This document shows, piece by piece, positions 39,150 through 56,078 of a DNA stretch of 64,000 nucleotides. The notes under the pieces are model-generated. The model was not told the origin of the DNA. It saw only the letters and a program-made list of their open reading frames with translations, and searched no databases. Position 1 is the first letter of the stretch; each line of letters opens with the position of its first letter. The translations under genes and the position numbers were made by a program. The DNA is taken from NCBI RefSeq assembly GCF_056746865.1, contig NZ_CM163382.1; one strand, written 5' to 3'.

Positions 39150-39899
39150 ATGATTGAAGAAGGGCTGTTACTTCCAATGAATGTTTTGCTTCAAGGACAG
39201 AAGTTAACCCTACTGGACCCTGAAATGTGGTTCTTACGGGGAAATGAAAACAAGGATGTAACCCTTGTTATTACGATTGGTAATAACCATCAAAAATTAA
39301 TGGTAGTGGAAGACATATTACTGCTCATTGACCGAAGCCAAATTGAGGTAACTGCAGGGAAAGTAATTTATCATCCACTTCGCATTGATATCCTGAGTAA
39401 ATTATTAGCTTTTATTGATGAATCAACGGGGAGTGTGGAAAGGGAACACCATGAGTTGTTTGCTGATGCCTTGCCCTTTGCATCAGAAGTTGTGCTATTC
39501 AGTAAAGTTGCAAGTGAAGCCTGGTTTTTAGCCACTTATCTGAGCAGCGATAATATTAATGAAATTCTGTTTCAGCATCTAAGAAAAACAGAATGCTATA
39601 AACTGGTTCGCTATTTATTATCGCAATCGCTCATACAGACTTCACTCTATGATCTTGGTGAGCTTTACGGCGTATCGTATTCACATTTTCGCCGTTTATG
39701 TAGTTATGCATTGGGTGGTAAAGTTAAAACGGAATTATGTGGCTGGAGAGTTGCCAGAGCCGTGTTGGAAATCATTGAAGGAAACAGTGATATGACAACT
39801 ATTGCGCATAAATATGGCTACTCATCCTCATCACACTTTTCAGCTGAAGTAAAAAGTCGGTTAGGAAAAACACCGAGAGAACTATGTAAAAAGTTATGA
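39150..39899 (+). CDS. eivF: AraC-family T3SS transcriptional activator (InvF homolog)
   Basis: 249 aa with C-terminal AraC HTH; directly upstream of secretin gene as in inv loci. Confidence 0.82.
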   Translation: MIEEGLLLPMNVLLQGQKLTLLDPEMWFLRGNENKDVTLVITIGNNHQKLMVVEDILLLIDRSQIEVTAGKVIYHPLRIDILSKLLAFIDESTGSVEREHHELFADALPFASEVVLFSKVASEAWFLATYLSSDNINEILFQHLRKTECYKLVRYLLSQSLIQTSLYDLGELYGVSYSHFRRLCSYALGGKVKTELCGWRVARAVLEIIEGNSDMTTIAHKYGYSSSSHFSAEVKSRLGKTPRELCKKL

Positions 39900-41599
39900 A
39901 AATAAAATTACGTATTACTATTATATTAATTTCAGCCTTATGCATTTTTAATGGATTATTGACTCCTGGTGCATATGCCGCAACAGCGAATGGATACGTA
40001 GCAAATAAAGAAAATCTACGTAGTTTTTTTGAAACGGTTTCATCATATGCGGGTAAGCCTACAATAGTAAGTAAGCTTGCCATGAAGAAACAGATCAGCG
40101 GAAATTTTGATTTAACCGAACCCTATGCCTTGATTGAACGCCTGTCGGCGCAGATGGGACTTATTTGGTACGATGATGGCAAAGCTATTTATATCTATGA
40201 CTCATCAGAGATGCGTAATGCTCTGATTAATCTGAGAAAGGTATCGACTAATGAGTTTAATAATTTCTTAAAAAAATCGGGTCTGTATAACTCTCGTTAT
40301 GAAATTAAAGGGGGCGGCAATGGTACTTTCTATGTATCGGGGCCACCGGTTTATGTTGACCTGGTCGTTAATGCTGCAAAATTAATGGAGCAAAACAGTG
40401 ATGGCATCGAGATCGGACGCAATAAAGTAGGGATTATTCACCTGGTCAACACATTCGTTAATGATCGGACTTATGAATTACGTGGCGAAAAGATAGTTAT
40501 TCCTGGCATGGCAAAAGTACTATCGACGTTGTTAAATAATAACATTAAGCAAAGCACTGGGGTTAACGTACTTTCTGAAATTTCAAGTCGTCAACAACTA
40601 AAAAACGTATCACGTATGCCTCCTTTTCCTGGTGCTGAAGAAGATGATGATCTACAAGTAGAGAAAATAATATCGACAGCTGGAGCGCCAGAGACTGACG
40701 ATATACAAATTATTGCATATCCTGATACCAACAGTTTACTTGTTAAAGGAACAGTATCTCAGGTTGATTTTATCGAGAAGTTAGTAGCTACACTCGATAT
40801 TCCAAAGCGACACATTGAATTATCTTTATGGATAATAGATATTGATAAGACTGATCTAGAACAGTTAGGAGCTGACTGGTCGGGCACGATAAAAATTGGA
40901 TCCAGCCTAAGTGCATCATTTAATAATTCAGGTTCAATTAGTACCCTGGATGGGACACAGTTTATTGCAACAATACAGGCACTTGCGCAAAAAAGAAGAG
41001 CCGCCGTTGTTGCTCGTCCTGTCGTTTTAACACAGGAGAATATTCCTGCTATATTTGATAATAACCGTACTTTCTATACTAAATTAGTCGGCGAGCGTAC
41101 TGCGGAGTTGGATGAAGTAACCTATGGTACGATGATTAGCGTGCTACCACGATTTGCTTCGCGAAATCAAATTGAATTACTCTTGAATATTGAAGATGGC
41201 AATGAAATCAATTCTGACAAGACCAATGTTGATGATCTGCCTCAGGTTGGTAGAACGCTTATAAGTACTATTGCGCGCGTGCCTCAAGGGAAAAGTCTTT
41301 TGATTGGTGGATATACACGAGATACGAATACCTATGAAAGTCGCAAGATCCCAATATTAGGCAGTATTCCATTTATTGGTAAATTATTTGGATATGAAGG
41401 AACAAATGCGAATAACATCGTTCGTGTCTTTCTTATTGAGCCAAGAGAGATCGATGAGCGCATGATGAATAATGCGAATGAGGCTGCGGTTGACGCCAGA
41501 GCAATAACACAGCAAATGGCAAAAAATAAAGAAATCAACGATGAATTACTGCAGAAATGGATAAAAACTTACCTGAATCGTGAAGTCGTCGGAGGATAG
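39896..41599 (+). CDS. eivG: T3SS outer-membrane secretin (InvG homolog)
   Basis: 567 aa; strong similarity to InvG as I recall it (e.g. ...GLIWYDDGKAIYIYDSSEMRNALINLRKVSTNEFNNFLKKSGLYN...TFYVSGPPVYVDLVVNAA...). Confidence 0.93.
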   Translation: MKIKLRITIILISALCIFNGLLTPGAYAATANGYVANKENLRSFFETVSSYAGKPTIVSKLAMKKQISGNFDLTEPYALIERLSAQMGLIWYDDGKAIYIYDSSEMRNALINLRKVSTNEFNNFLKKSGLYNSRYEIKGGGNGTFYVSGPPVYVDLVVNAAKLMEQNSDGIEIGRNKVGIIHLVNTFVNDRTYELRGEKIVIPGMAKVLSTLLNNNIKQSTGVNVLSEISSRQQLKNVSRMPPFPGAEEDDDLQVEKIISTAGAPETDDIQIIAYPDTNSLLVKGTVSQVDFIEKLVATLDIPKRHIELSLWIIDIDKTDLEQLGADWSGTIKIGSSLSASFNNSGSISTLDGTQFIATIQALAQKRRAAVVARPVVLTQENIPAIFDNNRTFYTKLVGERTAELDEVTYGTMISVLPRFASRNQIELLLNIEDGNEINSDKTNVDDLPQVGRTLISTIARVPQGKSLLIGGYTRDTNTYESRKIPILGSIPFIGKLFGYEGTNANNIVRVFLIEPREIDERMMNNANEAAVDARAITQQMAKNKEINDELLQKWIKTYLNREVVGG

Positions 41600-41603
41600 T
41601 GAA

Positions 41604-54832: not shown

Positions 54833-54847
54833 ACATATGAGAACGTT

Positions 54848-55429
54848 ATGAATCTTGCCCTAAGAAAAATTATATATGATCCAATTAGTTATATTCATCC
54901 CCAACGAGTAAGTTTGAATAATGCACGTATTAGCAATCCGGTACTTAGATCTATTACCAATGAAATGATACTCCTACAGTACAATCTTTCAGTTGAGCAT
55001 TTCAGTCTGAATAGTTCACTTATTTACTACATAAACAATTGGAAATTATTTCCATTGATCTGTTTACTCAGTGGTTGTCACTTTTATCGAGAAAGGTTTG
55101 CAGAACGCGGATTTTTTTACAAGGTTCCTGATGTGCTAAGGAATTATTTATCAGCTATACCGGTGGAAATAAATGAAAAGGCACGATATAAACCTGGTAT
55201 CGTTAACTATCAGAATATCATCACATGTGGTTTTTCAACGTTGTTGCCCTATCTAAGGCAACAACCGTTGGCAATGCAGCAACGATTTAATTTATTATTT
55301 CCTGATTTTGTTGACCACATACAATTGCCGTTACCACTTGCGTCTACTCTTTTGGAGAGAATTACATTTTATGCGAAAAAAAATAGAGATGAGCTTGATA
55401 AACTCTCCTGCAAATGGTGTTGTGATTAA
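54848..55429 (+). CDS. T3SS sorting-platform protein, OrgA/SctK-like
   Basis: Position after prgK homolog, as orgA in SPI-1. Confidence 0.5.
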   Translation: MNLALRKIIYDPISYIHPQRVSLNNARISNPVLRSITNEMILLQYNLSVEHFSLNSSLIYYINNWKLFPLICLLSGCHFYRERFAERGFFYKVPDVLRNYLSAIPVEINEKARYKPGIVNYQNIITCGFSTLLPYLRQQPLAMQQRFNLLFPDFVDHIQLPLPLASTLLERITFYAKKNRDELDKLSCKWCCD

Positions 55430-56078
55430 AAGAATAATTTCTGATGGATTGAAAGAAATAGTTTCTCTAAAAGAACAGATCCTTCTTGAAACCACCGCAA
55501 AAATTCAGAGTATTGAGGAAAAGAGAGAAGAAAAAGTTATTCAAGGTTATTATGATGGCTATGCGAAAGGCATTATTGATGTGATGGATAATTTTATACC
55601 CTTGATAAGTTTGCTGAGCTCAGAATTAGAAAAAAACAGAATAAATATGATAAACGATCTGAAGAGCATATTGTTAAAATCTTCAGAGGAAGTTGAAGTT
55701 TTTATCAAAATTTTTGAAAGTTGGGTAACAAAATTACCGTCAATATCAGGCCCTTTAAATCTCTATATACCTACCAGTTTCAAAGATAAGTCTATTGAAG
55801 TAGAGTCATATTTTGTCGACAAGTCAATATGGAATGTCCATATTTCATATCATGATGACAAACGTTTTGTTTTTTTTACAGATCAATTTATTGCTGAATT
55901 TAGTCCGCAGGAATTTGTGGATAATTGTGAGCAATATTTAATTAGCAATCACTGTTTTTCCCCTGACAAGGTTAATGAAATCTGTGAACATGCCAGACAT
56001 TATTTAGTTGAAAGAATGTGTGAAATAGATTCTTTGGCTATGAATAATTCTGATTTGACGACCCCAGAGGACTTATAG
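55371..56078 (+). CDS. T3SS stator protein, OrgB/SctL-like
   Basis: ORF 55308..56078; ATG 55371; call by position. Confidence 0.45.
   Translation: MRKKIEMSLINSPANGVVIKRIISDGLKEIVSLKEQILLETTAKIQSIEEKREEKVIQGYYDGYAKGIIDVMDNFIPLISLLSSELEKNRINMINDLKSILLKSSEEVEVFIKIFESWVTKLPSISGPLNLYIPTSFKDKSIEVESYFVDKSIWNVHISYHDDKRFVFFTDQFIAEFSPQEFVDNCEQYLISNHCFSPDKVNEICEHARHYLVERMCEIDSLAMNNSDLTTPEDL

Follow-up and report, generated by a model that had tools for sequence, protein, structure and literature searches.

An ETT2 type III secretion island of Escherichia coli that is very probably intact, and the pseudogene flags on its eivJ and epaO genes

The DNA analysed here (hereafter the window; 64,000 nucleotides of contig NZ_CM163382.1, NCBI RefSeq assembly GCF_056746865.1) contains, from position 36700 to beyond its end at 64000, what in all likelihood, judged by gene content and alignment, is the ETT2 island of Escherichia coli, a glyU-associated second type III secretion system (T3SS) that resembles the system of pathogenicity island 1 in Salmonella (SPI-1), in an undegraded state. 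This state matches phylogroup D lineages such as sequence types (ST) 69 and 38. The core of the island is the apparatus block at 39150-56078, whose coordinates an initial annotation, made from the letters and a list of open reading frames (ORFs), had given exactly. The block comprises 20 ETT2 genes from eivF to orgB, arranged as eivFGEACIJ-epaOPQRS, then an InvH-like gene and etrA on the opposite strand, and then eprHIJK-orgAB. ETT2 is present in most E. coli, and whether it works in secretion has been debated for some twenty years, mainly owing to the broken copies carried by the strains that were studied first.

The genes from eivF to epaS lie on the plus strand. They begin with eivF (39150-39899), encoding an InvF-like AraC-family regulator of 249 amino acids (aa) that matches positions 10-208 of the 216-position InvF profile, and eivG (39896-41599), encoding the 567-aa secretin SctC (TIGR02516, 486 bits against a cut-off of 238). 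The gatekeeper SctW/InvE is encoded by eivE (41604-42749; 381 aa; NF011866, 604 bits, positions 5-372 of 372) and the export gate protein SctV/InvA by eivA (42742-44802; 686 aa; NF011865, positions 1-686 of 686). The ATPase gene eivC (SctN/InvC; 44834-46126; 430 aa; NF006012, positions 1-430 of 431), whose product carries the P-loop AGCGKT and the Walker B motif VLFIDS, is followed by eivI for a SctO/SpaM-like stalk protein (46116-46574; 152 aa; positions 4-145 of 147 in the SpaM profile, with a weak score) and by eivJ for a SctP/SpaN-like needle-length regulator (46552-47427; 291 aa), which is open throughout. NCBIfam profiles identified the next products as the sorting-platform protein SctQ/SpaO (epaO, 47427-48374, 315 aa), SctR (epaP, 48364-49029, 221 aa), SctS (epaQ, 49040-49300, 86 aa, profile positions 1-86 of 86), and SctT (epaR, 49302-50069, 255 aa), and the switch protein SctU (epaS, 50078-51190, 370 aa) has its NPTH autocleavage motif at residues 257-260. 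Two genes then lie on the minus strand: one for a 97-aa InvH-like small lipoprotein (51261-51554) with the lipobox LSAC, which aligns only to the C-terminal part of the InvH profile and is a candidate secretin pilotin, and etrA (51556-52056), for a LuxR-type regulator of 166 aa recognised by profile search and by relatives' annotation. Back on the plus strand, NCBIfam profiles identified the inner-membrane ring protein SctD/PrgH (eprH, 52315-53496, 393 aa), the needle subunit SctF (eprI, 53510-53749, 79 aa), the inner rod SctI (eprJ, 53769-54101, 110 aa), and the inner-membrane ring lipoprotein SctJ (eprK, 54098-54832, 244 aa). The block closes with orgA (SctK; 54848-55429; 193 aa; TIGR02555, positions 1-185 of 185) and orgB (SctL; 55371-56078; 235 aa; positions 3-200 of 210 in the OrgB profile, with a weak score).

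The core set of an SPI-1-type (Inv-Mxi-Spa) system is thus complete (SctC, D, J, F, I, R, S, T, U, V, N, O, P, Q, K, L, and W), and the catalytic and processing motifs (P-loop, Walker B, and the SctU NPTH) are in place. The NCBIfam profiles of SctC, W, V, N, Q, R, S, T, U, D, F, I, and J, OrgA, and OrgB were spanned essentially end to end, and 14 of the 17 core proteins passed the curated cut-off in one or more family models. For EivI, EivJ, and OrgB, the matches to SPI-1 models stayed below the cut-offs, and these proteins were assigned by synteny and length; the profile matches of EivJ and the InvH-like protein were confined to their C-terminal parts.

The assignment to ETT2, which had already been proposed in the initial annotation, was borne out by gene order and by high nucleotide identity to reference ETT2 loci. 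The window's nucleotide identity over 27.3 kb amounts to 99.99% with strain HR5-1, 99.1% with MS 69-1, 98.8% with 042, and 95.9% with an O157:H7 strain, the gene order of 042 and O157 being the same, and its alignments to the ETT2 of these four strains contain single-base insertions or deletions only. ETT2 is characteristically inserted adjacent to glyU and low in G+C (about 37%); in the window, G+C is 0.31-0.46 from 38 kb onward compared with ~0.52 upstream. Alignment to every reference ETT2 starts at an 18-nt repeat of the 3' end of the tRNA-Gly gene glyU (TTCCCTTCGCCCGCTCCA; plus strand, 36700-36717), which marks where ETT2 begins on the left and is also the right attachment site of the island next to it. 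None of the multilocus sequence typing genes lies within the 64-kb window. It nevertheless probably stems from the ST69 clonal group, an indirect assignment that rests on strains with the identical apparatus block (118UI, NMBU-W13E19, and WP8-S17-ESBL-12), which are the nearest matches of ST69 contigs (PMC7952442).

To evaluate integrity, we translated 29 island genes in the window, MS 69-1, 042, and O157 from one alignment, taking an intact ETT2 in the sense of Ren 2004 and Fox 2020 as one with no deletion, insertion, or inactivating mutation. All 29 genes from eivF to yqeI had a standard start, a single terminal stop, and the length seen in MS 69-1 in the window; this includes nine further genes beyond the apparatus block, up to yqeI (56301-63132), which are open as well. 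No frameshift, internal stop, or insertion was found in the ETT2 secretion genes by this translation, in agreement with the ORF listing from which the structural genes had initially been read as single uninterrupted frames. The only frameshifted gene is a non-secretion gene for a glycoside hydrolase of family 15 (GH15) at the island's edge. On this evidence we consider it highly probable that the ETT2 cluster of the window is genetically intact. Other copies are known to be damaged, as the initial annotation had stated for O157 Sakai and K-12 (with eivJ and epaR as examples). The O157:H7 copy has a stop at codon 78 of eivJ, a 1-nt deletion in epaO, and a stop at codon 151 of epaR; in addition, its epaS has lost the stop codon, and there are frameshifts in eprH, orgB, the InvH-like gene, and yqeJ. 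K-12 retains only the orgA/orgB end, which is 6% of the block.

Two flags in public annotation would, if correct, contradict this result. In all the phylogroup D-type loci that we fetched, including those of 042, MS 69-1, HR5-1, PK8261, and TUM1226, the RefSeq Prokaryotic Genome Annotation Pipeline (PGAP) labels eivJ as "incomplete, missing C-terminus" next to a short coding sequence and calls epaO "frameshifted". It is nonetheless very unlikely that eivJ and epaO are true pseudogenes and that the cluster is not intact, a possibility that we rejected on base-level alignment, public protein lengths, and the N-terminus of the Escherichia albertii homologue. The eivJ frame runs from the ATG at 46552 to the stop at 47427 without an internal stop, and both annotated pieces lie in that one frame. 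They mirror the fragments created in O157, where CAG is changed to TAG at 46783 (the Q78 stop). Among 5.8 billion public proteins, the 291-aa EivJ is the commonest form, with clusters of 680, 584, 251, and 235 members at 85-98% identity, all four of which carry the SpaN domain PF02510. With regard to epaO, one A is absent in O157 at 47461, which fuses an out-of-frame upstream ATG to the gene and yields a 328-aa product that RefSeq evidently treats as full length. The 315-aa form is dominant among public proteins (clusters of 2,322 and 4,734 members). Which N-terminus is ancestral was left undiscriminated by the NCBIfam SctQ model, since the 328-aa O157 EpaO also aligns to profile position 1, and was settled by protein alignment with E. 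albertii: the N-terminus MFGLR recurs in the 303-aa homologue of E. albertii, and that of the O157 protein is unrelated to it. Both RefSeq flags are therefore annotation artefacts, and they appear to arise from reference proteins derived from O157 (the Q78-stop fragments and the 328-aa EpaO). Checked base by base for hidden deletions and frameshifts, the cluster thus yielded no real lesion in either flagged gene. The opposite error, in which the intactness itself would be an artefact of sequencing or assembly such as miscalled homopolymer lengths, could be suspected from the many A8 and T8 tracts in the block (13 A/T homopolymer tracts of at least 8 bases), from the change of a homopolymer length in the GH15 gene (T5 to T4) that is private to the window, and from an unusual junction at 16798. 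We regard this as extremely improbable, given that the 16,929-bp block is base-identical in at least 21 independently assembled complete genomes.

Intact copies had initially been described as less common, and our survey is consistent with this. Among 5,426 complete E. coli genomes, 3,690 carry some ETT2 and 932 carry at least 80% of the 39150-56078 block. A sample was formed by 15 evenly spaced members of the ranking that fell among these 932 full-length loci, and a 20-gene test was run on 10 of them and, in place of the five O157-type members, on one O157 strain. Two of the 15 loci (PK8261 and TUM1226) were fully intact. In two more (MSB1_3B and B19695) the only change was a stop-loss that adds 5 residues to OrgA. 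The others tested carried IS5 in epaO (HR5-1), a nonsense codon in eivJ together with a lost epaS stop (LD67-1), or frameshifts in the InvH-like gene (19KM1803), orgB (CB209), eivF (ST2747), or both eivG and eprH (A30), and the five O157-type members are assumed to share the lesions of the one O157 strain tested. These results support an intact state in 2-4 of 15 full-length loci, or roughly 2-5% of complete genomes, with the small size of the sample to be borne in mind. At least 21 complete genomes contain the identical 16,929 bases as one piece, and in many others a single base is different. The near-identical strains HR5-1, HR12-1, and MS 198-1 have an insertion in the block, which in HR5-1 is the IS5 in epaO. 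We also observed that the stop-loss variants (OrgA +5 residues in MSB1_3B and B19695; EpaS +3 in LD67-1 and also in O157) are otherwise silent; because of such variants, the line that surveys draw between "intact" and "mutated" is blurred.

Within the island, eivJ is the weak point. It holds 3 of the 13 long tracts (A8 at 46648-46655, 46988-46995, and 47011-47018), and its ratio of nonsynonymous to synonymous substitution rates (dN/dS) of 0.52 is the highest among the apparatus genes. The tract at 46988-46995 is A8 in the window, MS 69-1, and O157, whereas 042 has A7, a frameshift that leads to a stop at codon 162 of its eivJ and was reported earlier by Ooka 2015 (PMC4700944). Recurrent 1-nt changes in a poly(A) tract of eivJ were described in E. 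albertii in the same study (PMC4700944). Truncated EivJ forms are present in public data on several backgrounds, including 162-aa proteins with the A7-type tail EREKNIAMETKKMESRPIY; other truncated forms shift into the same alternative frame further upstream. Some of these may be sequencing errors in read-derived assemblies. One could envisage that the window's allele encodes a fully working injectisome in which the A8 tract at 46988-46995 is a slippage-prone on/off switch, with one-base changes toggling EivJ, the protein of needle length and substrate switching. Such a switch would account for the recurrence of A7-type 162-aa truncations on several backgrounds, for the gain or loss of single bases in a poly(A) tract of E. 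albertii eivJ, and for the fact that work on 042 never showed secretion. We consider this combination improbable; it is also only partly new, as slippage (by frameshifting or transcriptional realignment) was floated as a mechanism by Ooka 2015 (PMC4700944).

We then asked whether the open frames bear the mark of selection. Estimated by the Nei-Gojobori method for 17 apparatus genes, dN/dS was ~0.10 against O157, ~0.12 against 042, and ~0.12 against MS 69-1 (range 0.10-0.13), with single genes ranging from 0.00 (eivF, epaQ, and eprI) to the 0.52 of eivJ. Across 29 proteins, 14 amino-acid changes were private to the window's allele, mostly between similar residues. This pattern indicates genes kept by purifying selection and not neutral decay, which concerns their past and not their present expression. 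The initial suggestion that the cluster could be functional is a hypothesis with which the sequence, including a dN/dS of ~0.12, is compatible.

By homology to Salmonella SPI-1, the encoded parts would assemble into a needle complex under inducing conditions set by the regulators EilA, YgeH, and EivF. EivG, aided by the InvH-like lipoprotein, would form the outer-membrane ring and EprH with EprK the inner-membrane rings, while EpaP, EpaQ, EpaR, EpaS, and EivA would make up the export gate. The cytoplasmic sorting platform and ATPase would consist of EpaO, OrgA, OrgB, EivC, and EivI, and the inner rod and needle of EprJ and EprI. Needle length and the substrate switch would be governed by EivJ with EpaS, and EivE would gate the export of translocators versus effectors. 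Pbl would open the peptidoglycan, YgeG would act as chaperone of the translocators, and the exported substrates of the finished complex would be the Eip proteins of tip and translocon, whose genes form a separate locus near selC, outside the window. The parts themselves are present and open; their assembly and the order of events in this scheme are drawn from the Salmonella model. Whether the machine actually secretes is, in our judgement, about evenly balanced.

Several points weigh against an intact and working ETT2. They include the RefSeq flags on eivJ and epaO in near-identical strains (dismissed above as an artefact) and the weak or partial matches of the accessory proteins EivI, EivJ, OrgB, and the InvH-like protein to SPI-1 profiles. 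Such matches are usual for fast-evolving components such as EivI, EivJ, and the InvH-like protein. Open frames and past purifying selection are also no proof of present expression or assembly, and homologues of the tip and translocon proteins SipD, SipB, and SipC were not found in 36700-64000 among ORFs and annotations. On its own the window is therefore without a complete injection device, which leaves its membership in ETT2 unaffected. Published evidence on ETT2 secretion is mixed (PMC6030553, PMC7058095, PMC11068852), and its experimental side is weak. No ETT2-dependent effectors were found in the secretome of an O2 strain with intact ETT2 (Shulman 2018; PMC6030553) or in that of ST69 (Fox 2020; PMC7058095). 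Deleting an intact ETT2, on the other hand, alters flagellar expression, surface properties, and serum resistance (PMC6030553), and EspE3 has been reported as an ETT2-dependent secreted protein and candidate substrate in avian strains (reviewed in PMC11068852).

It is possible that the ORFs are intact and the injectisome is dead, in which case the island would be retained for its regulators or because it indirectly affects the envelope, flagella, and serum resistance, and the apparatus would simply not have decayed yet. We take this seriously and place it somewhat short of an even chance. It would accommodate the deletion phenotypes obtained with no secreted effector (PMC6030553), the lack of substrates found in ST69 (PMC7058095), and a window without translocon or effector genes. 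It would also fit the readiness with which relatives break, as seen in the IS5 in epaO of HR5-1, HR12-1, and MS 198-1 and, within our sample, in the single lesions that 6 of the other 9 phylogroup D-type loci carry. However, a dN/dS of ~0.12 over 17 apparatus genes, even between close intact strains, is unlike relaxed selection, and the report of EspE3 as an ETT2-dependent secreted protein in avian strains (PMC11068852) argues in the same direction. In addition, the eip translocon locus co-occurs with near-identical ETT2. In 042, the genes for EipD, EipB, and EipC lie ~1 Mb from ETT2, together with those for the regulator EilA and the adhesin Air; the eip locus (eicA-eipBCD-eilA-air) is present in 721 of the 5,426 complete genomes, and it is complete in LR-58-2 and CB7453, whose ETT2 block is identical to that of the window or one mismatch away.

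Outside the apparatus block, the island starts with the GH15 gene (36950-38559, plus strand), which is not a secretion component. A 1-nt deletion private to the window at 38160 (T5 to T4) shifts its frame, which ends after 423 of 536 codons; HR5-1, MS 69-1, and 042 have an intact copy, and the O157 copy is frameshifted separately. This change could be a homopolymer sequencing error. It is followed by an open gene for a GhoT/OrtT-family small toxin-like protein (38625-38804, plus strand, 59 aa), named after the RefSeq annotation of identical loci. To the right of 56078 lie ygeK, pbl, ygeI, ygeH, ygeG, ygeF, yqeK, yqeJ, yqeI, and a cut yqeH. Profile search identified ygeK (56301-56933, plus strand, 210 aa) as an open gene for a LuxR-type response regulator. 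On the minus strand, pbl (56952-57455, 167 aa; IagB-like lytic transglycosylase) and ygeG (59636-60127, 163 aa; SicA/LcrH-type translocator chaperone) cover their family profiles essentially end to end, and ygeH (57925-59301, 458 aa), for a HilA-family regulator, matches NF008870 over positions 1-458 of 458. The open genes ygeI (57539-57757, minus strand, 72 aa) and ygeF (60353-60844, minus strand, 163 aa), both of unknown function, as well as yqeK (61274-61699, plus strand, 141 aa) and yqeJ (61848-62330, minus strand, 160 aa), were named from relatives' annotation. Annotation and profile search identified yqeI (62323-63132, minus strand, 269 aa) as an open gene for a winged-helix regulator. 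The yqeH regulator gene (63466-64000, minus strand; coordinates transferred from a relative's locus) is cut by the window end, and its stretch shows zero insertions or deletions against MS 69-1.

The left flank is a more unusual part of the window than ETT2 itself. Core chromosome, with the genes from nlpD to cysN-cysD-iap, a type I-E CRISPR array, cas2, cas1, and cas6e, fills positions 1-16798 and ends inside cas5e, and this segment is 100% identical to strain 118UI. The CRISPR array lies at ~13100-14200 (repeat CGGTTTATCCCCGCTGGCGCGGGGAACAC), with cas2-cas1-cas6e and the cas5e part at 14300-16798. At 16792-16798, a 7-nt overlap (CTTCGCC) joins the truncated cas5e to the last 14 nt of glyU, which is the attachment core. 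The gene orientation at this junction implies that ~100 kb have been inverted, from cas5e to the left attachment site of the adjacent element, with the crossover inside the attachment core, and the inversion was probably mediated by the integrase at a pseudo-attachment site. The junction is shared by none of the 5,426 complete genomes, and the window holds no intact tRNA-Gly and no intact tRNA at all. With cas5e truncated, the type I-E Cascade is disrupted. CRISPR-Cas was probably already degraded before this event, since the cas1e of 118UI, which is identical over 1-16798, is flagged by RefSeq as having an internal stop. From 36700 on, ETT2 and its upstream region are untouched by the rearrangement.

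Between the junction and ETT2 lies the integrative element at glyU itself (16799-36717, ~19.9 kb). It encodes a tyrosine integrase (16931-18184) and a DUF927 primase (22566-24692), along with AntA/BRO antirepressors, SSB, and a ProQ/FinO-like protein. Its int-alpA RNA (18229-18296, Rfam RF02996), beside the integrase, was the sole hit of an Rfam scan of the whole window, which gave zero matches in ETT2. Three large ORFs (27693-30224, 30224-32284, and 32263-35040) fall into PHROGs head, virion, or ejection-type families, and no PADLOC or NCBIfam family matched them. We considered and rejected a defence system for these ORFs, as the PADLOC screen had no match and PHROGs pointed to phage virion or ejection-type proteins. 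Overall, the element looks like a phage satellite or prophage remnant. In strain SCU-105 the same element is placed normally, between an intact glyU and ETT2, and it is also found at glyU in a few other strains. The element of the window additionally contains a TnpB of the IS200/IS605 family (25851-27059, 402 aa; RNA-guided endonuclease NF040570, 391 bits), which is probably a recent insertion and is unannotated at that place in the SCU-105 copy.

The question of secretion is properly addressed with a strain that has all of its ETT2 genes open. Such strains are already recognised in ST69, ST38, ST405, and others, and the exact sequence of the block is at hand in at least 21 complete genomes. 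Since 042, the strain customarily used as the intact reference, is frameshifted in eivJ, alleles like that of the window would be better references and experimental models. Because RefSeq systematically mislabels the open eivJ and epaO, pseudogene counts based on annotation would wrongly score every ETT2 as degraded and misjudge its integrity. Neither these flags, nor the frameshift in 042 eivJ, nor the documented occurrence of the intact state had been mentioned in the initial annotation.

When compared with known systems, the island belongs to the same family as Salmonella SPI-1 and largely keeps its order (invF-G-E-A-C-I-J, spaO-P-Q-R-S, prgH-I-J-K, orgA-B). Both have iagB, hilA-like, and sicA-like genes, and the best profile hits of ETT2 are SPI-1 models. 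It differs from SPI-1 in being without the sipBCDA, sicP, sptP, and iacP block, with homologues of the tip and translocon proteins at a distant locus instead; invB, orgC, hilC, and hilD were not seen in the ETT2 island, the InvH-like protein is shorter (97 versus 147 aa), and divergence is high in EivI, EivJ, and OrgB. The E. albertii ETT2 (Ooka 2015) is likewise glyU-associated and apparently intact in many strains, with eivJ undisrupted, but it belongs to a different species, and its EpaO, at least, is only 51-53% identical to that of the window. O157:H7 (Sakai-type) has a full-length island at the same locus with 95.9% identity, which carries the O157 lesions listed above. Enteroaggregative E. 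coli 042 is closer (98.8% identity), with the same 29 genes at the same lengths, except that its eivJ is frameshifted and that of the window is in frame.

The closest counterparts are the ETT2 islands of phylogroup D, and the intact state is already known and published, so that the window adds no new biology in this respect. Fox 2020 reported that intact ETT2 is accompanied by eip in 22 of 26 bloodstream isolates of ST69, as well as in ST38, ST405, ST349, ST362, and public ST69 genomes (PMC7058095). Intact ETT2 was reported likewise in a survey of 376 ST38 genomes (PMC9787326), and a 2024 review describes intact ETT2 isoforms in several pathotypes (PMC11068852). The ST69 and ST38 islands share the gene order and intact state of the window, and the identity to 042 over ~27 kb (98.8%) is in line with the 98.9% reported for ST69 (PMC7058095). 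The secretion genes show no difference from these islands; what sets the window apart is that glyU is parted from the island in this genome by the phage-like element and the rearrangement, and that the GH15 gene is frameshifted.

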